DNA of 26,274 bases from the IMG/VR virus record IMGVR_UViG_3300038701_002504, positions 83,235-109,508 of that record; one strand, 5' to 3'. The number at the start of each line of letters is the position of its first letter. Position 1 is the stretch's first letter. A program made the translations under genes and the position numbers. Source of the stretch: a virus. Positions 4,703-19,725 of the stretch are shown here, piece by piece. Below the pieces are notes generated by a model that saw only the letters and a program-made list of their open reading frames with translations, was not told where the DNA came from and ran no database searches.

Positions 4703-6077
4703 GCAGAAGACAATCGGCGGCAAAAAAGCATTTAAAGATATGTTTGGTGATCCTAAGATCTATCAAATTGACGATCATGGGATTGAAGATCAGAAGGCCA
4801 AAAAAGATAAATCTCGTAAAGCTGATAAAGCTCCAGTTGCTGAGGGTATTAATGGTGAATGGACCAAGGAACGTTCACGCAGAGAAGATGAAAATATTAA
4901 AGCTGTAAAGAAGACATATGGCGATTTCAGAACTACTGTTGGAAAAAATTCAAAAGAGAAGATGAAAGAAATTGCTGCTTCTATGAATGAATCATGGGTT
5001 GTGACTATGCCTATATCTGATCCTGATAAAACTGGCAAAGAGATCAACAAAAGATTTATAGACCGCGGAATAGATTATCAGGATATGGGATGGGACAAGC
5101 AAGGTAATCTTACTGTTGAATTTGATGATGAAAAAGAAGCAAAACGTGCTGCAATGATTTTAAAATCTTTCAGACATTCTTCAAAAAATCAAATGCCTAA
5201 AGTTATGAAAGAATCTCTTTCTGATCTTAAATCTATGTATGCCTCATCAATACCTGAAATCGTCGATGAGATCAAAGAATTGTCATCAACTCTTATAGAT
5301 TATTACATGGATCAAGAACAGGAATGGGCTGATACAAATGTTGCACCAGCTCCTGGTATGTATCTGGATTGGAAGGGTATCTATAGAGGTCTTGAAGATT
5401 TAAGAGATATTATGCTTTGTGCTGCACCAGATGAACTTGTTGGTATCGATGGAACAGATGATATGAATGAGTCTGCAAACGACTCAATGAGACAAAAAGT
5501 TATGTCAGCAATTGCAGCAGATATAAGAAAAACTAATGAAAAATTCAAAACTAAAAAAGATGTTGAAAGATATTTAGATTTCACCGGCGGCGACATCATT
5601 ACTAAAATAACAAAGAATGATGATGATTTCAATAATATGCTTCAGTATGCTTCTGAAAAATTATCAAAGAATCTTAGAGAATCTAATCTCCATGAGATTT
5701 CAAAAGAAAGAAAAGATTCTTATGTAAAAAGATCTGCAACTGATGCCGGCTTAGCTAATTTTGGTAAAAGACAATCTGATAAACCAGATGAAAAAAAGAA
5801 ATTTGGTGATGTAGAAAGAAAAAGAAGAGCAGGTCTAAATTTAGCTCTTGCTAAAGGCGGTGACAAGCCTGTTTATAAAAAAGAATCGCTTGATGAAGCA
5901 TTCTCATCTGGATCATTGAAACTGATGGATGGATCAACATATAATTTAACATCAGACGAAGCAAAAGCTTTAAATAAAGTGATGTCTTCAACAAAAGAAA
6001 AAGATCGTATGACAAAAAGAATCACTAAAAGTAAAAGTGATTTGAAGTCTATGATAGAATTTTCAAAGGAAGTGTAA
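4692..6077 (+). CDS. Putative prohead core/internal protein (gp68 position)
   Basis: Between the gp67-like genes and gp21, overlapping both neighbours; many hydrophobic-x-E sites (MNES, MKES, LRES, LHEI, LDEA). Confidence 0.6.
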   Translation: MVDKQKTIGGKKAFKDMFGDPKIYQIDDHGIEDQKAKKDKSRKADKAPVAEGINGEWTKERSRREDENIKAVKKTYGDFRTTVGKNSKEKMKEIAASMNESWVVTMPISDPDKTGKEINKRFIDRGIDYQDMGWDKQGNLTVEFDDEKEAKRAAMILKSFRHSSKNQMPKVMKESLSDLKSMYASSIPEIVDEIKELSSTLIDYYMDQEQEWADTNVAPAPGMYLDWKGIYRGLEDLRDIMLCAAPDELVGIDGTDDMNESANDSMRQKVMSAIAADIRKTNEKFKTKKDVERYLDFTGGDIITKITKNDDDFNNMLQYASEKLSKNLRESNLHEISKERKDSYVKRSATDAGLANFGKRQSDKPDEKKKFGDVERKRRAGLNLALAKGGDKPVYKKESLDEAFSSGSLKLMDGSTYNLTSDEAKALNKVMSSTKEKDRMTKRITKSKSDLKSMIEFSKEV

Positions 6078-6718
6078 TGAAACTTATAACAGAACAAAAC
6101 TTTGATGTGAACTATATTAGAGAAAATCTAGAGGAAGGTAGAAAACCTACCTTATGGATCGAAGGAATTTTCATGCAGGGGGACATTAAAAACCGTAATG
6201 GTAGAATTTATCCTGCTACAATTCTTGAAAGACAAATGAACTATTATGTTGAAAATTTCGTCTCAAAACATAGATCGCTTGGAGAATTAAATCACCCAAA
6301 TGGACCAACAATCAATCTTGATAAAGTATCTCATATGATTACTGAAATGAGACGTGATGGTTCTGATTTCTATGGTAAAGCAAAAATACTTGATACTCCA
6401 ATGGGTAATATTGCGCGTTCATTAATTGATGAAGGTGCTTCTCTGGGAGTTTCAACAAGAGGTCTAGGATCTGTTAAACAATCTGGTGGTGCTATGGTTG
6501 TTCAAGAAGATTTTGTTCTGAATACAGTTGATATCGTTTCTCAGCCTTCTGCTATGGATGCGTGGGTAAATGGAATCATGGAAGGGGTGGAATGGATCTG
6601 GGATGGTGATACTTTGAAAGAAGTAACATTAAATGAAATTAAAAAAGATTTAGACAAGCCACTATTAACTGAAGCACAAGTGTTAAGAAATTGGAAGAAA
6701 TTTCTCAAAACGCTATAA
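6077..6718 (+). CDS. 21: Prohead protease gp21
   Basis: MKLITE, IEGIFMQ, NRNGRIYP, GELNHP, VSH, LGVSTRGLGS, DIVSQPSA. Confidence 0.96.
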   Translation: MKLITEQNFDVNYIRENLEEGRKPTLWIEGIFMQGDIKNRNGRIYPATILERQMNYYVENFVSKHRSLGELNHPNGPTINLDKVSHMITEMRRDGSDFYGKAKILDTPMGNIARSLIDEGASLGVSTRGLGSVKQSGGAMVVQEDFVLNTVDIVSQPSAMDAWVNGIMEGVEWIWDGDTLKEVTLNEIKKDLDKPLLTEAQVLRNWKKFLKTL

Positions 6719-6720
6719 TT

Positions 6721-6728
6721 TATAAATA
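6721..6728 (+). promoter_or_regulatory. T4-type late promoter
   Basis: TATAAATA upstream of gp22. Confidence 0.8.
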
Positions 6729-6756
6729 ATAAAAAATAAAAAATAGGAGTGATAAA

Positions 6757-7608
6757 ATGGACAAGATTAAAAATACTCACGATTCTGGTGAAGCTGAAGT
6801 TGATAAAGTAACAGGCTCTCACAAAAGACCAAAGGATAAGAATGTTGGCGACAAAAATGCTGACACTTCAGCTGCTGAAAAGGTTCAGACAATGCCATCT
6901 GGTGCTGTAAGAAAAGAAGATCTTGATATTCTTTTTGATGGTACTGAATTATCTGAAGAATTCCAGGAACAAGCTTTTGTTCTTTTTGAAGGCGCAGTTT
7001 CCGCAAAAATTGAATCTTTGAAAGAAGCTATGGAAGCAGAATTTGAAGAAAAACTTGCTGAAAGCGTTGAGTCTTATGAAGACAAACTTTCAGATTTCAT
7101 TGATATCTTTGTAGAAAATTACATGCAGGAAAATGAGCTTGCAATTGAAAATGGTATTAAAGCTGAAATTGCTGAATCACTTCTTGATGGACTAAAAAAT
7201 CTATTCGTAGAACATAATGTTGAAATCGATGAAGACAAAGTTGAAATTGTTGAAGCCCTTTCAGAAAGAGTTGCAGAACTTGAAGGCGCTTTAAATGAAG
7301 CCCTTGAAAGCAAGGTAACAACTCAGAAACTTATTGAAAATTTCGAAAAAGAACGTATTCTCGCTGAAATGACATCTGATATGGATGAAGTTTCTAAGGA
7401 TAGAATTAAGAAACTTACAGAAAATATCTCATTCAAAGATGCGACAAGCTTTGAAGCTTCTGTAAACATTCTTAAAGAATCTGTGTCTTCTAAGAAGACT
7501 GTTGTTAAAGAAGACATGCTGAATGAAGAAGTAGCTGTAACAGATGGTTTAACTGAAAAAGTTATTGATCCAAAAATGGCTGCAATTCTAAAAGCTCTTA
7601 GAGACTAA
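6757..7608 (+). CDS. 22: Prohead scaffold protein gp22
   Basis: Acidic coiled coil; ELSEEF...FEGAV, ENELAIENGIKAEIAES...LKNLFVEH; lies between gp21 and gp23. Confidence 0.92.
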   Translation: MDKIKNTHDSGEAEVDKVTGSHKRPKDKNVGDKNADTSAAEKVQTMPSGAVRKEDLDILFDGTELSEEFQEQAFVLFEGAVSAKIESLKEAMEAEFEEKLAESVESYEDKLSDFIDIFVENYMQENELAIENGIKAEIAESLLDGLKNLFVEHNVEIDEDKVEIVEALSERVAELEGALNEALESKVTTQKLIENFEKERILAEMTSDMDEVSKDRIKKLTENISFKDATSFEASVNILKESVSSKKTVVKEDMLNEEVAVTDGLTEKVIDPKMAAILKALRD

Positions 7609-7624
7609 TAGAAATTTCGAAATT

Positions 7625-7632
7625 TATAAATA
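7625..7632 (+). promoter_or_regulatory. T4-type late promoter
   Basis: TATAAATA upstream of gp23. Confidence 0.8.
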
Positions 7633-7659
7633 ATAATAAAAATAAAGGAGACTACGTTA

Positions 7660-8970
7660 ATGTCAATGGTTAAAAAAGAAATTATCGCAAAGTGGGAAGA
7701 TGTTCTTAATGAATCATCTGCCGGTTGCCCAGCAATCACAAATCCAGAAATTGCTGCTGTAACAGCTCAGCTTTTGGAAAACACTGATAAAGCTTATTCA
7801 TCAGGTCTTTTTGAAAATGTTCCTTCAGGACTTTCAGAAGCAGCACCTACTTCTAACACAGGTAACGTAAAGAATTACGACCCTGTTCTTATCTCACTTC
7901 TAAGACGTGCGGCTCCTAAGCTTATCGGATATGAAATCATGGGAACTCAGGCTATGACTGGACCAACTGGCCAGATCTTCGCAATGAGATCACGTTACAC
8001 TTCAAACACAGGTGCGGAAGCATTCTACAATGAAGCAAATACAGGTTTCTCAACAATTAATGGTGGTAACACTGAAATCGTTGGTGATGCAGGTCTTAAC
8101 CTAGGTACAACTCCAACAGGTAATGCTGAAACATATAACGCTGCTGGCGCTATGTCTCTTGCACAGGCTGAAGCACTTGGTACTTCAGGTAATGCTGCTT
8201 TCGCTGAAATGACAGTGACAATCGAACAGCTTTCTGTTACTGCTGGATCACGTAAGCTAAAGGCTCACTACACACATGAATTCGCACAGGACTTGAAGGC
8301 TATTCACGGACTTGAAGCTGAAAAAGAACTTTCAAACGTTCTTTCAACAGAACTTGTTTCTGAAATTAACCGTCAGCTTGTAAGAACATGTTATCTAACA
8401 TCTTCAGCTGGTGCTACTTCTGGTACCACAACAGCTGGTATTTTCGATCTTGACACTGACTCAAACGGTCGTTGGATGGGTGAAAAGTTCGCAGGACTAC
8501 ACTTCTTTATTGACCTAGAAGCTAACGCTATCGCTAAGTCAACACGTAGAGGTAAGGGTAATGTTCTTATTACTTCTTCAAACGTAGCTTCTGCCCTTCA
8601 GATGGCTGGAGTTCTTAAGTTCAATGATGCTGCTGCTTCATTAACTATCGATGACACCGGTGTTTCATACGCAGGTATGATTAACAATAAGATCAAAGTG
8701 TTCATTGATCCATATGCAACATCAGATTATATCGTTCTTGGATATAAGGGTGCCAACAGCTGGGATGCTGGTATGTACTACTGCCCTTACACACCTCTAC
8801 AGATGGTAAGAGCAACTGAAACTGGATCACTTACACCAGTAATTGGTTTCCAGACAAGATACGGACTTGTAGCTAACCCATTCTCAAGAGGAGCAACTGC
8901 TTCTGACGGGTCAATGATGGCTAACAGTAACGTGTATTACAGAAGAACTGCTATCGCAAATATTCAGTAA
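7660..8970 (+). CDS. 23: Major capsid protein gp23
   Basis: YDPVLISLLRRA, MTGPTGQIFAMR, SRKLKA, AQDLKAIHGL, TRRGKGN, YYCPY, IGFQTRYG. Confidence 0.98.
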   Translation: MSMVKKEIIAKWEDVLNESSAGCPAITNPEIAAVTAQLLENTDKAYSSGLFENVPSGLSEAAPTSNTGNVKNYDPVLISLLRRAAPKLIGYEIMGTQAMTGPTGQIFAMRSRYTSNTGAEAFYNEANTGFSTINGGNTEIVGDAGLNLGTTPTGNAETYNAAGAMSLAQAEALGTSGNAAFAEMTVTIEQLSVTAGSRKLKAHYTHEFAQDLKAIHGLEAEKELSNVLSTELVSEINRQLVRTCYLTSSAGATSGTTTAGIFDLDTDSNGRWMGEKFAGLHFFIDLEANAIAKSTRRGKGNVLITSSNVASALQMAGVLKFNDAAASLTIDDTGVSYAGMINNKIKVFIDPYATSDYIVLGYKGANSWDAGMYYCPYTPLQMVRATETGSLTPVIGFQTRYGLVANPFSRGATASDGSMMANSNVYYRRTAIANIQ

Positions 8971-15151: not shown

Positions 15152-15366
15152 TATTTCTCCATTGTCTTTTCTAATTTATTGATAAAAGCATCAATTTGTT
15201 TATGTCGTTTGTCGCCTGGCCAATTGATTATATTGGAATCTTTATCGCCTTTCAAATTTTCCAGAAAGGTCTTCATCATCTCAAACATTTCCGATGTTCG
15301 ATCAATTGGTTTAAAATCTTCTTCTGATTGGAATGTAAATCCAAAATCGTTAATATCTTCACTCAT
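15151..15366 (-). CDS. Small hypothetical protein of T4-like phages
   Basis: DFGFT...FLENLK...INWP; coupled between the polymerase and uvsX. Confidence 0.75.
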   Translation of the reverse strand: MSEDINDFGFTFQSEEDFKPIDRTSEMFEMMKTFLENLKGDKDSNIINWPGDKRHKQIDAFINKLEKTMEK

Positions 15367-17152
15367 AAAATTGACTCATATCAGATTTATTTTCTAATGA
15401 AATGCCGGCTGGATTTGCTAGCGATGTGATTGGTTTAATGAAGGTTTTTTCAAACTGTCTATCATAATCTATGAATTGATCCAATCCAAACTCTTCTGGT
15501 AACTCATCTAAAGACGATATAACATCTTCACGTATAGGATTAGGCAATTTCAAATATGTGAATTTAATCTTATCACCACTTTGAATTTTCATATATGTCT
15601 TATCTAGATCATGATCCTCTAACAGTTTGTTATATAGTAAAGAACCTCTTACATGAAGCGGTGTTCCTTTCGTATATAGAGTATTTATATCACTATATTT
15701 CGAAACGCCATTTACTCCGCCTGGATTTGCAACTTTTTCAAATGGAAGTGAATAAAATTCTTCTCTACATTTTTCGATAAATGACAAAAGTCCATCTTTG
15801 TCATTGTTAAGAATTATTGGTATACTATTTTTGATATAATTTCTACATACTTCAGGAGTTGAAGATTTAACAGCTTCAATACCCTTCATCTTAATTTTCA
15901 TTTCAGAATAGAATACACCTTCATTGAAGAATACGCCCATCACATAGTTCTTTGACTTACGCCAAATTACCTGAGCAATCACTTCAAGCTTCATATGTAA
16001 TTTTTTCTGATATGCATTTGTTACTGAATATAGATCTTCCATAGCAGCTTGGATGACGTGTTCTTCAAGATGTTTTGAAAAATTTGATAAGAATTTAACA
16101 ATTTCTTCTCTTTCACCACCATTCGGGAATGCTTTCTTAACAACGCCTTCCATATTAAAGTATGCTGAGTCTGTATCTACAGCGATAATATAATCCACAT
16201 TGTCCGTCTTTAACATCTTATTTAGATATATATTAGCGTATTTCTCAACATATTTAGAAGCCAATTGGCCACTTAGTGTAATAGACTCTGCAATGTCGTA
16301 GCTAAACCAACGTGAATACGGATTCGCAAGTCCTCCATAGAAGGCATTCGCGAAAATTTTAGTTGCTAATTGTTGGTTGTTAAATTCAACAACACGTGAT
16401 TTTGTCTTTTTATATTCTTCCTTTAATTTGGCATCATCTGGATTTGTTGAAAGTTTTTTCTTAATTTCTTCAAGCTTCTGTTCTTCGAGAAGCATGATGT
16501 CTTTATATTCTTTTCGTTTCGCAAAAACTTCTTCCATGATTTCAGCAAAGAATGATTTTTTAGCTCGAGAAAAAACTGTGCCTTTTGCAGTAATGCACAT
16601 ATTATTTTCCAGAAGTTTTTCTTTAATCTCATCATAAACTCTATCATTGATAATTCTATCTGGATTGTCAACATTGTCGAATTTATCAAGTTTACCCATA
16701 TAAGCATCTGGAGAAATATTATATGTCATAATAATATGTGGATAAAGTGATGTGAAGTCATATGACATAACATATGGATACAAACCAGGAATCACTTCCT
16801 TCACATATCCACCAGCAATAATTCTGGAAAGCTCGCTACTTTCGGCTTTTTTATGTGGAATTACAACTTTATAATCCATCATTTTATTATGAATCACAAC
16901 ATCACAGGGTTTCACAGTCGCGAACGCGTCATGTAGGTTTGTTCGAGTAAAATGTGATAATGAGAAAATGAGTTCAATAAATTTCAACTCATGTTCAAGT
17001 TCTTCAACTCGAACAATATCGATTATGTTGTATGTATATGCCATAGCATATGATTCTTTATCGGCTTCTGCTTCTACTTTTTCTAATAATTTTTGTAAAT
17101 CTTCAGTAGAAATTGTTTTTATATCTAAATTTAATATTTCTTCTATATTCAT
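15359..17152 (-). CDS. 43: DNA polymerase gp43, C-terminal fragment (ExoIII, palm, fingers, thumb)
   Basis: YNIID (ExoIII), SYDFTSLYP, KIFANAFYG, AVDTDS, KGIEAVKSSTP. Confidence 0.95.
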   Translation of the reverse strand: MNIEEILNLDIKTISTEDLQKLLEKVEAEADKESYAMAYTYNIIDIVRVEELEHELKFIELIFSLSHFTRTNLHDAFATVKPCDVVIHNKMMDYKVVIPHKKAESSELSRIIAGGYVKEVIPGLYPYVMSYDFTSLYPHIIMTYNISPDAYMGKLDKFDNVDNPDRIINDRVYDEIKEKLLENNMCITAKGTVFSRAKKSFFAEIMEEVFAKRKEYKDIMLLEEQKLEEIKKKLSTNPDDAKLKEEYKKTKSRVVEFNNQQLATKIFANAFYGGLANPYSRWFSYDIAESITLSGQLASKYVEKYANIYLNKMLKTDNVDYIIAVDTDSAYFNMEGVVKKAFPNGGEREEIVKFLSNFSKHLEEHVIQAAMEDLYSVTNAYQKKLHMKLEVIAQVIWRKSKNYVMGVFFNEGVFYSEMKIKMKGIEAVKSSTPEVCRNYIKNSIPIILNNDKDGLLSFIEKCREEFYSLPFEKVANPGGVNGVSKYSDINTLYTKGTPLHVRGSLLYNKLLEDHDLDKTYMKIQSGDKIKFTYLKLPNPIREDVISSLDELPEEFGLDQFIDYDRQFEKTFIKPITSLANPAGISLENKSDMSQFYE

Positions 17153-17184
17153 CTTTATTTTATCTTTCTGGAAATCAACGATAT

Positions 17185-17198
17185 TATAAATATTTATA
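17185..17198. promoter_or_regulatory. Palindromic back-to-back late promoters
   Basis: TATAAATATTTATA is a perfect palindrome with TATAAATA on each strand. Confidence 0.65.
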
Positions 17199-17217
17199 TA
17201 ACATTAAGGATAGAGTA

Positions 17218-17934
17218 ATGAAAGAATTTATTAATTTTTCACATGATAACAATAACATAAAATCTAATAAATATTTTAAATGGTATATCCAAATTATATT
17301 TAATTCCATTTATTCTAATAGACCTTTATTTCATAGAGAATATGAAAAACACCATATTCTTCCTAAAAGCTGTGGTGGAAGCAACGAAATAAATAATATA
17401 TGTATTTTAACATATAAAGAACATTATATATGTCACTTATTGCTAACTAAATTTCTTCTTAAATATGAACATAAGCGAAATATGCAATTTGCACTACATA
17501 CTTTTTTTCATTTTGATAAAAATAGAGTTTTAGCCTCAAAAAGATCCTTAATATATGAAAATCATAAAAAATTATATAGTAAATATCTTTCTGAGAGAGA
17601 ACCATCAAATGTTAGAGAAGAAATATATACTTTTAAAAACAAAAAAACCCATCAAATTTTTATAGGGCGACCAATAGATTTTATAAAATTTTCAGGTTTA
17701 ACCCATCAAGAAATGAATCATCTACAAAATGTTTATAATAAAAAAGCTTCATATAAACATATAAAAAATTGGGGTATTTTTTTAGATGATAAACAAATTT
17801 TTTCTTATGAGATTCCATATAAGAAAAGAAAACATCCTACAATTAAATGTGAGTTTTGTGGCAAAGTCACAGCAAAATTTAATTATGTAAGATGGCATGG
17901 AAAAAACTGTAAATCACTTATCAGTCCTGTTTAA
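17218..17934 (+). CDS. Free-standing HNH homing endonuclease (MobE-like)
   Basis: EKHHILPKSCGGSNEINNICILTYKEHYICHLLL; C-terminal CEFC...RWHGKNC; AAGGA SD before ATG 17218. Confidence 0.9.
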   Translation: MKEFINFSHDNNNIKSNKYFKWYIQIIFNSIYSNRPLFHREYEKHHILPKSCGGSNEINNICILTYKEHYICHLLLTKFLLKYEHKRNMQFALHTFFHFDKNRVLASKRSLIYENHKKLYSKYLSEREPSNVREEIYTFKNKKTHQIFIGRPIDFIKFSGLTHQEMNHLQNVYNKKASYKHIKNWGIFLDDKQIFSYEIPYKKRKHPTIKCEFCGKVTAKFNYVRWHGKNCKSLISPV

Positions 17935-18930
17935 TAGTTCATCTTTTATTTTATCTCTCATATAACACAACTTTTCTAGTTTTATCATATCTTTAATATT
18001 TTTATTTTTATCGTATTTAAATACTTTTGATCCTTCCAATAGTTTATGTAGCTGTGTCATTTCGCCAGCTTTAAGCTTTTTCTTATCCAAAACAACATGC
18101 GAAATGTAATCTAATTTAAATGACTCAGAGTTTTTAAATGAGAACTTTTTATAACACTCCATATAGTCAAGAGTTGGAATGCCAATGATATCATATTGTG
18201 TTTGTTCTCTACCATACATCATAAAAGTACTTTCTTCTATGATGCCAAAAGGTGATAGAGATTTAGCAAAATCTTCACCAAACAATCTCATCAATCTTCG
18301 AATAAGATACACATGGTCGTAGCCGTTAATGTTCCAACCAGTGATAACATCCATTTTGAGACGTTGCCACGTCTCTACAAATTTAAGCAGAAGATCGCGT
18401 TCATTATCACATTTAATGTATATCACATTTTTTGTGACGCCTTCACGGTCAAGAATTTCTTGAATAGGCTCAGCATCCTTAAGACCAAAGCAATACAACT
18501 CATTGTCAGACATCACACCGATTGAGATTGACGTGATCTCTTTATTTGCTGTTTTGATGTCGGCATAACCACCATCAGAGTCAGTTTCAATATCGTAATT
18601 ACCGATACGAATTACACTATTATCAGATTGGAGATCTTTATAATTGTCATAGATCCATACATAATCGAAGTATGTAGATCCATATAGGTTATATCCATCA
18701 ATTCCTTCATGATCACGAATAAACTGACGAGCTTCGAATGGCGATTTAAATTGCTTTTTCTCAACATAATTTCCATCCATGTTTTTGTATGGAGTTTTTT
18801 CCACCGAAGGAATAAACATATATGGATGTATTTTAATCTCTTCGTTAAATTTAATGCCGCCCTCATAATATGAAATTAATAATTTCGATTTCGATTGCTT
18901 AAAAAATGTGTAAAATTTACTTTTTGACAA
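17914..18930 (-). CDS. 43: DNA polymerase gp43, N-terminal fragment (NTD, ExoI, ExoII)
   Basis: YDIETD, ITGWNINGYD, LSPFG, LDYMECYKKF...SFKLDYIS; TTG start with AAGGA SD. Confidence 0.93.
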   Translation of the reverse strand: MSKSKFYTFFKQSKSKLLISYYEGGIKFNEEIKIHPYMFIPSVEKTPYKNMDGNYVEKKQFKSPFEARQFIRDHEGIDGYNLYGSTYFDYVWIYDNYKDLQSDNSVIRIGNYDIETDSDGGYADIKTANKEITSISIGVMSDNELYCFGLKDAEPIQEILDREGVTKNVIYIKCDNERDLLLKFVETWQRLKMDVITGWNINGYDHVYLIRRLMRLFGEDFAKSLSPFGIIEESTFMMYGREQTQYDIIGIPTLDYMECYKKFSFKNSESFKLDYISHVVLDKKKLKAGEMTQLHKLLEGSKVFKYDKNKNIKDMIKLEKLCYMRDKIKDELLNRTDK

Positions 18931-19011: not shown

Positions 19012-19725
19012 ATGAGTATTTATACAGTATATCAAACTACTAATCTTGTAAACAACAAATTTTATATTGGTGTTCATAAAACAGATGATCCGCATGATGA
19101 TTATTTGGGTTCTGGGAGACTGATAACTAGAGCAATAAAGAAGTATGGACAAGAAAACTTTGTGAAAAAGATTCTATTTATTTTTGATAATAGAGAAGAT
19201 GCTTATGATAAAGAGAAAGAGCTTGTTAATATAATACTGCTTGAAAATTCATTATGTTATAATATGAAGGAAGGTGGGATAGGAGGAAAACATTCCAAAG
19301 AATCACGAGAAAATATATCAAAAGCCCAAATAGGTAAAAAACGTAATAGTGAGGCATGTGCTAATATATCAAAAGCTTTAAAGGGTAGAAAAATATCTAA
19401 CAAACATAAAGAAAAACTATCAAAAGCAGCTAAAGATAGAAAATATACTAGAGAATTTTCAGAAGCTATGTCAAAGGCATTAAAGGGTAATGTTTTAGTA
19501 TCCATGTCTCATTTAAAGTATCACTATAAGTTGATAGACCCAAGCGGAAATATTCAACTTGTTGAAACTGGATTAGTAAAATGGTTAAATGAAAACAATA
19601 TGCCATTAAACTCAATAGCAGTTTTAAATAAGGCCTCTGGAAAAATTATATCCAGAGGCATTTTTAAAGGATGGATATCAATTAAGTATTTAATTCCTCC
19701 AGATCATAGCCAAGATACATTCTGA
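19012..19725 (+). CDS. Free-standing GIY-YIG homing endonuclease (Seg-like) with NUMOD3-like repeats
   Basis: VYQTTNLVNNKFYIGVH, YLGSG, AIKKYG..NF, E...YN..GG; repeated ISKA.KG units. Confidence 0.92.
   Translation: MSIYTVYQTTNLVNNKFYIGVHKTDDPHDDYLGSGRLITRAIKKYGQENFVKKILFIFDNREDAYDKEKELVNIILLENSLCYNMKEGGIGGKHSKESRENISKAQIGKKRNSEACANISKALKGRKISNKHKEKLSKAAKDRKYTREFSEAMSKALKGNVLVSMSHLKYHYKLIDPSGNIQLVETGLVKWLNENNMPLNSIAVLNKASGKIISRGIFKGWISIKYLIPPDHSQDTF

Follow-up and report, generated by a model that had tools for sequence, protein, structure and literature searches.

How can a phage tolerate a homing endonuclease gene that splits its replicative DNA polymerase inside the proofreading domain, and what do the extra residues at the two new protein ends contribute? 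This question is raised by a 26,274-nt stretch of viral DNA, here called the window (positions 83,235 to 109,508 of IMG/VR record IMGVR_UViG_3300038701_002504), which is the final 26 kb of a single 109.5-kb contig and for which megablast against phage genomes returned no nearby isolate match. Its minus strand carries a T4-like replication module made up of a gp41-like helicase, UvsX, a small open reading frame (ORF), and a family B DNA polymerase (PolB) in two pieces, the C-fragment and the N-fragment (Table 1). An endonuclease gene lies between the pieces on the opposite strand; the N-fragment ends in an additional segment, the tail, and the C-fragment begins with another, the head. A first-pass annotation of the letters alone had proposed that tail, endonuclease, promoter and head are one element that invades essential genes and neutralizes itself by zippering the fragments together non-covalently instead of splicing them. 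This interpretation is partly supported by the present analysis, being largely right for the polymerase gene, and its concept had already been published for the NrdA gene of phage Aeh1, split by mobE. We favor, at a probability of about 60%, the explanation that a Mob-type endonuclease cassette split the polymerase gene and brought tail and head with it, and that the fragments reassemble non-covalently with tail and head acting as a clasp.

The split polymerase and its inserted cassette

The two pieces are a T4 gp43-type family B DNA polymerase. Pfam assigns DNA_pol_B_exo1 to the N-fragment (E 1.4e-19) and DNA_pol_B to the C-fragment (E 3.8e-24), whose entire ORF (15359-17152, minus strand) encodes 597 amino acids (aa); phmmer searches against RB69 and T4 gp43 chains gave E values of 2e-32 and 2.3e-19 for the two fragments. 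They are the sole PolB matches in the 109.5-kb contig and together span a full-length relative. In an alignment to RB69 gp43, for which the structure is solved, N-fragment residues 6-294 correspond to RB69 4-312 and C-fragment residues 36-149 to RB69 318-428. These limits leave about 44 residues of the N-fragment and about 35 of the C-fragment without a counterpart, and put the break in the proofreading domain, after motif ExoII and immediately ahead of the ExoIII helix. The step from 312 to 318 agrees with the native gap of a few residues that the first-pass annotation had given for T4 gp43.

Table 1. Features of the split polymerase locus (window coordinates)
Feature	Position	Strand	Basis
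PolB N-fragment, 338 aa, TTG start; N-terminal domain and exonuclease domain through ExoII	17914..18930	-	ORF call
C-terminal tail of N-fragment, 52 aa after KKKL, cassette-borne	17917..18072	-	DNA similarity to relative, conservation, GC, model
Mob-like HNH homing endonuclease gene, 238 aa, antisense to polymerase	17218..17934	+	ORF, tblastn, weak Pfam
Divergent spacer, 65 bp, with 14-bp palindrome (17185-17198)	17153..17217	.	Sequence
N-terminal head of C-fragment, 40 aa (34 aa = 17051-17152), cassette-borne	17033..17152	-	DNA similarity, conservation, GC, model
PolB C-fragment body: ExoIII helix, rest of N-terminal domain, palm, fingers, thumb	15359..17032	-	Pfam, RB69 alignment, AlphaFold2

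The limits of the insert are sharp. The closest relative found (P0122, on locus L009) is 88% identical over the N-fragment body, is sister to the window polymerase, and is contiguous at the split site, where 22 residues separate its KKKL and TYNIID motifs. DNA similarity between the two loci ends right after KKKL and restarts at the TYNIID codons, so that approximately 1,040 bp (17033-18072) in the window stand in place of 66 bp (22 codons). No insertion is present at this site in any unsplit relative aligned. The GC fraction is 0.21 in the tail coding sequence (0.21-0.26 for 17917-18072), 0.22 in that of the head (0.22-0.23 for 17033-17152), 0.23 in the endonuclease gene, and 23% over the whole cassette, against 0.32-0.33 in the polymerase bodies. 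The extensions are absent from unsplit homologues and compositionally foreign, as in the Aeh1 NrdA type of split. Within the tail, the first 14-15 or so residues form a diverged native-like helix, while the last 37-39 (17917-18033) comprise a linker and a basic amphipathic helix. The endonuclease gene overlaps the 3' end of the N-fragment by 21 bp.

By its sequence, the plus-strand ORF is a Mob-type free-standing HNH homing endonuclease gene, with neither an intron nor an intein domain. In tblastn searches, in which matches under 60% identity covered 889 phage records, it matched, at 27-30% identity in the best places listed, genes of T4-like phages that are annotated as Mob-like/HNH homing endonucleases; its Pfam HNH_5 match (18.7 bits) falls below the family cut-off. 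Identity is 43-56% to the endonucleases at the same position in five other loci and 40-57% over 14 carrier loci, and a His-His...Asn...His motif and a C-terminal Cys/His motif are invariant in six copies of the cassette.

The palindrome in the spacer matches the T4 late-promoter consensus on both strands in the window. The match facing the endonuclease, TATAAATA, is conserved in 10 of 12 related loci; in L090, the locus that was read out, it is followed by a GGAG-type ribosome site and then by the endonuclease start. The match directed toward the C-fragment occurs in the window only and is not conserved among the relatives in these 12 loci, several of which have AGGAG-type sites before the C-fragment start. 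Read-through transcription from further upstream therefore probably supplies the C-fragment message, whose translation would be independent. As for the single element proposed in the first pass, tail, endonuclease and head do behave as one inserted unit, on the grounds of boundaries, GC content, co-conservation and polyphyly; a promoter serving the C-fragment is not supported as a part of it, the conserved promoter facing the endonuclease.

The same combination of tail, endonuclease and head recurs in at least 16 environmental phage loci, found in two ENA contigs (L004 and L005), IMG/VR contigs (L010-L014), and about a dozen metagenome contigs (L090-L101 and L111). The common order is N-fragment, a convergent endonuclease gene that abuts or overlaps the stop codon in most loci, and C-fragment. 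In L098 (1-2129), where the endonuclease gene runs in the same direction as the polymerase, the usual tail and head are conserved all the same. The polymerase bodies of the carriers share only 22-57% identity. In a tree of N-fragment bodies the carriers are scattered, well-supported branches requiring at least five changes of state, and monophyly of ten core carriers is rejected by the approximately unbiased (AU) test (log-likelihood difference 408, p-AU 0.0002), with the caveat that the group, although defined by presence of the cassette, was chosen after a first tree had been inspected. The endonucleases average 46.5% identity between pairs, more than the polymerase bodies at about 42%, and the two are weakly correlated (r 0.07-0.36). 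This pattern fits a cassette moving, or being removed, as a unit by recombination.

Three cyanophage-like loci (L006-L008) have their polymerase broken no more than a few codons from this position, by an endonuclease of more remote sequence (about 29% identity), whose flanking tail and head have no recognizable kinship to the core family yet show the same polarity (+4 and -7). The L006 endonuclease ORF (5307-6071, minus strand) has no ATG ahead of the conserved N-terminal motif and overlaps the start of the C-fragment; it may therefore be decaying or use an unusual start. A further observation concerns L010, L100 and L111, and possibly L011 and L099, where a further ORF or a 0.5-1.4-kb gap breaks the C-fragment once more downstream; in the first three the polymerase is therefore in three or more pieces.

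Predicted structure and pairing of tail and head

When the N-fragment was modeled alone with AlphaFold2, its body reached predicted local distance difference test (pLDDT) values above 90 and was followed by a low-confidence linker and a helix at residues 312-336. The C-fragment alone (mean pLDDT 89) was predicted with helices at 3-7 and 16-69 and a turn between them, the head itself having a pLDDT of 70-81. Helix 16-69 is an N-terminal prolongation of the ExoIII helix, so the head is laid out as a short helix, a turn, and an acidic helix that extends ExoIII. Fifteen tails and twelve heads are alignable, and the conserved positions in both alignments show heptad-like hydrophobic spacing.

The two extensions are oppositely charged in the window. 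The 39 aa after LHKLLE in the tail hold 12 K/R and 7 D/E, and the 34 aa of the head hold 10 D/E and 4 K; the first-pass annotation had given the coordinates, lengths and charges exactly. Over the family, the net charge of the terminal helix of the tail runs from 0 to +6 (mean +3.1, 15 loci) and that of the head helix from -1 to -6 (mean -3.4, 12 loci), so for these two helices the opposite charge is family-wide. Whole heads are always acidic (net -3 to -10). Opposite charge thus holds for the window overall and for the terminal helices throughout the family, not for the tail as a whole.

A complex prediction that set the tail alignment against the head alignment gave an interaction prediction score from aligned errors (ipSAE) of 0.35 (0.34-0.37 among runs), the best of three controls reaching 0.02; the runs share at least 82% of contacts, and partner pLDDT is at least 71. 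Of 80 solved complexes used to calibrate the score, 58 came up to this mark, as did 2 of 110 mismatched pairs; only 7 of those 80 complexes, but both of the passing mismatches, did so with a score of 0.60 or under. The prediction modestly raises the odds that tail and head pair directly and is no proof that they do; the zippering suggested in the first pass receives from it what the tool terms 'weak support'.

These data led us to favor the following sequence of events. A free-standing Mob-type HNH cassette of approximately 1,040 bp would have inserted into a T4-type polymerase gene just upstream of the ExoIII codons, displacing 22 codons and bringing in an endonuclease gene with its late promoter, a stop codon, a new start, a tail of about 37 aa and a head of about 33 aa. 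The two fragments would be translated separately and would reassemble non-covalently through their large native interface, while the tail and head helices would pack together as a small, charge-complementary, heptad-patterned clasp. By holding the ExoIII helix in the exonuclease domain, this clasp would make the insertion phenotypically tolerable, and it would be the polymerase counterpart of the tails of Aeh1 NrdA-a and NrdA-b. In that system, NrdA is split by mobE and the fragments carry unique AT-rich tails with isoelectric points of 10.4 on the first fragment and 3.8 on the second; the tails are kept in the mature proteins and are required for higher-order assembly and activity, though not for formation of the heterodimer (Crona et al. 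2011, PMC3045599).

Several points weigh against the clasp and the history proposed for it. Since the Aeh1 tails are not needed for the heterodimer, a clasp role for the extensions is not guaranteed. The tail helix is of low confidence (pLDDT approximately 58-63) when the N-fragment is folded alone, and the complex prediction is weak by the calibration of the tool itself. Whole extra tails range in net charge from -2 to +8 (+5 overall in the window), and overall charge complementarity is therefore not universal; the linker charge is variable. The C-fragment of the window lacks the clear ribosome-binding site of several relatives, its own site being weak. Finally, gain by homing and loss by recombination are not separable for the window's own lineage.

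The same evidence bears on the most serious alternative, which we consider unlikely, namely that tail and head are functionally required without being paired. Each could pack on the body of the other fragment, repair the exonuclease fold, contact DNA or an accessory protein, or tune proofreading. The only tested precedent points this way, the Aeh1 tails being dispensable for association yet essential for activity, and so do the weakness of the tail-head prediction, the variable linker charge, and the modeling of the head as a continuation of the ExoIII helix even when no partner is supplied. A requirement without pairing would, however, leave aside the conserved heptad-like hydrophobics and opposite helix charges that hold family-wide, and a complex score that, within the limits of its calibration, is far above those of the controls.

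More tentatively, and at somewhat less than even odds, the tail-head pair of the clasp model may be a 'repair kit' that one lineage of Mob endonucleases passes on and moves along with itself, so that the element would carry its own heterodimerizing helices. If so, the element would have spread by recombination among polymerase genes with as little as 22-57% identity and persisted intact, and its pair would be both a naturally occurring, portable module for split-protein assembly and the first family, defined by sequence, of protein clasps borne on a cassette.

Selection on the extensions and their origin

Between 47% and 49% of identical aligned residue pairs in the extensions are encoded by different codons, including six-fold Leu/Ser/Arg family switches. 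This variety of synonymous codons at conserved residues implies that both extensions are translated and constrained at the protein level, and it indicates that selection acts on the tail and head proteins, not on the DNA or RNA that encodes them. It also speaks against the view, which we hold to be very improbable, that the extensions are neutral leftovers of the insertion, produced by read-through into an AT-rich insert up to a stop and by a fortuitous upstream start, with their charge a product of composition. A cassette of 23% GC does favor Lys, Asn and Ile codons, and the window tail is more basic than many of its relatives. Neutral sequence would nevertheless not be expected to stay alignable over at least 12-15 loci among polymerase bodies so diverged, to encode conserved Leu, Ser, Arg, Ala and Val positions with many synonymous codons, or to keep tail and head conserved where the endonuclease gene is inverted, as in L098. 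An open extension of 37 codons at the base composition of the cassette has a probability of about 0.025 per event. Taken with conservation in at least 16 other loci and with the predicted helices, this makes the extensions more than a product of chance.

That the polymerase is rejoined, whether through excision of the entire insert as a group I or group II intron or through tail and head acting as a cryptic split intein, is scarcely credible, even though removal by splicing would give roughly native spacing and relatives have a group I intron (in the polymerase gene of L009, the closest) or intein domains: an Rfam search of 16800-18300 found no intron, and no covariance-model catalytic core, at E <= 10, while the same search detects the L009 intron (Intron_gpI, 115.6 bits, E 1.9e-31, 6607-6815), and the supposed intron parts are under protein-level selection. 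Neither fragment has a Pfam intein or Hint domain at E <= 0.01. The tail has no invariant column and the only invariant column of the head is Leu, so no intein-type Cys/Ser, His or Asn is conserved, in agreement with the absence of intein residues noted in the first pass; the head is followed by Cys, Ser or Ala. Intein blocks A and B and a C-intein ending in His-Asn before Cys, Ser or Thr are likewise not found, and 35 + 33 aa (the extra tail measures 32-38 aa over the family) is far below the size of an intein, approximately 100 + 35 aa or more.

Profiles of the two extensions were also used in large searches for a fused form and for other host genes. Against 1.84 billion representative proteins, the head profile had 16 matches. 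In 13 of them the head lies among the first 50 residues and the protein is no longer than 599 aa; Pfam scans of eight of these identified PolB C-fragments in every case, and the shorter ones printed carry the ExoIII motif. The remaining three belong to unrelated repeat proteins, which have a generic helix-capping motif in common with the head. The tail profile had 22 matches, all of 101-346 aa; 21 contain the Pfam exonuclease domain only, and the 101-aa one has no Pfam match. In both searches the matches lie only at fragment termini, and no contiguous fused form was found; unsplit relatives with a contiguous insertion of about 70 aa, which the first pass had named as the observation that would overturn its idea, were not among them. 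A hidden Markov model (HMM) scan of six-frame ORFs, covering 107 loci with related endonucleases and the whole contig, placed the tail-head pair in PolB fragments only. The suggestion that the same pair invades unrelated genes thus found no match in these HMM and profile searches.

The three unrelated proteins (P0147, P0155 and P0159) are large and contain a tandem, short, acidic helix-capping motif that resembles the head core, which suggests, as a matter of sequence resemblance, that the head motif is a common building block and not specific to polymerases. A likeness between the head and the gp43 fingers helix, also proposed in the first pass, was discarded as this generic motif and not significant; small ORFs located where the fingers region is split in L009 and L010 matched only weakly (E 0.04-0.19).

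The origin of the extensions was approached by comparison with the native segment that the cassette replaces. With hhalign, only the first 14 positions of the tail match this segment (E 0.011), whereas the head and the extra tail do not; the remaining residues, approximately 35 in the tail and 33 in the head, match neither native PolB nor one another, and tail and head show no similarity to each other by BLASTP or hhalign. A MAFFT alignment and long BLAST extensions had suggested that the extensions are overlapping duplicates of the native segment. This was rejected, as an HMM of that segment gives the window tail 3.7 bits, with 39 of 500 shuffles as high, and the head 1.5 bits, with 238 of 500. 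A duplication origin is possible but unsupported.

Related split genes and neighboring features

The closest known system is Aeh1 NrdA, in which an essential, replication-related gene of a T4-like phage is likewise split by a free-standing Mob-type HNH endonuclease, with AT-rich unique extensions at the new C- and N-termini and no RNA or protein splicing (PMC3045599). The same work proposed tails as a general way to neutralize gene fragmentation and cited T4 gp39/gp60 with mobA. In that T4 topoisomerase a Mob insertion also splits a contiguous enzyme gene and leaves tail-like extensions of similar charge distribution, but the enzyme is another, the role of the tails is only speculated upon, and no conserved tail family is described (PMC3045599, PMC2988022). 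The present case differs from Aeh1 in its host gene, which is PolB and is broken inside the proofreading domain, and in its endonuclease gene, which is antisense in nearly all loci. Unlike the Aeh1 tails, which have no database relatives, the tails here, known from sequence, are a conserved family in at least 16-22 lineages that travels with the endonuclease. Friedrich et al. 2007 reportedly also dealt with the Aeh1 NrdA-a/NrdA-b split by mobE.

Gene 43 is itself split in Aeromonas phages 44RR and 25, probably further downstream in the gene than in the window. According to the passages of PMC2988022 that treat these phages, the gene is present as 43A and 43B (citing Petrov et al. 2010), so that a T4-type PolB is again made as two polypeptides, which there co-purify and are active; the split is associated with an endonuclease gene, and phage 25 has a group I intron as well. 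As those passages describe it, this split differs from that in the window in that an untranslated sequence lies between the cistrons and, in phage 25, the endonuclease is of the seg type. An arrangement similar to that described for phage 25 is seen in L009, whose polymerase (5001-7846) is broken in the fingers region, with a 493-aa piece followed by a 39-aa exon-like ORF and the group I intron in motif B. The window polymerase is contiguous at the fingers and split at ExoII/ExoIII.

Environmental phage-like replication genes broken around a free-standing endonuclease gene were also described by Dassa et al. 2009 (PMC2677866), who likewise proposed charge complementarity of the terminal pieces. 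In those fractured genes the termini are split inteins that ligate the halves, whereas here intein blocks and domains are absent and the pieces are too short.

In the literature searched, no account turned up of a PolB broken between ExoII and ExoIII and bearing a conserved family of tails and heads. What is new here is a polymerase member of this class of split genes, along with evidence from a whole family that tail, endonuclease gene and head are passed on jointly while under selection. Aeh1 NrdA is the only experimentally shown case of fragmentation neutralized by cassette-derived tails. The same solution appears in the proofreading domain of a replicative polymerase, with a tail/head family conserved alongside one endonuclease lineage in many uncultured T4-like phages, and it becomes possible to test, comparatively and biochemically, whether selfish endonucleases bring a protein-level remedy of their own. 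A natural pair of short helices is also a candidate clasp for split proteins. For annotators and phylogeneticists, the loci serve as a warning that PolB marker genes in aquatic myoviruses often come in two or three pieces.

Two further endonuclease genes were observed in the contigs studied. The window has a second free-standing one at 19012-19725 (plus strand), GIY-YIG/NUMOD3-like by a weak Pfam match, between the N-fragment and an upstream 206-aa ORF; at this position the closest relative, L009, has only a gap of about 360 bp. A relative of the cassette endonuclease is encoded outside the window at G000 contig C1 16844-17182, with 42% identity over 118 aa.

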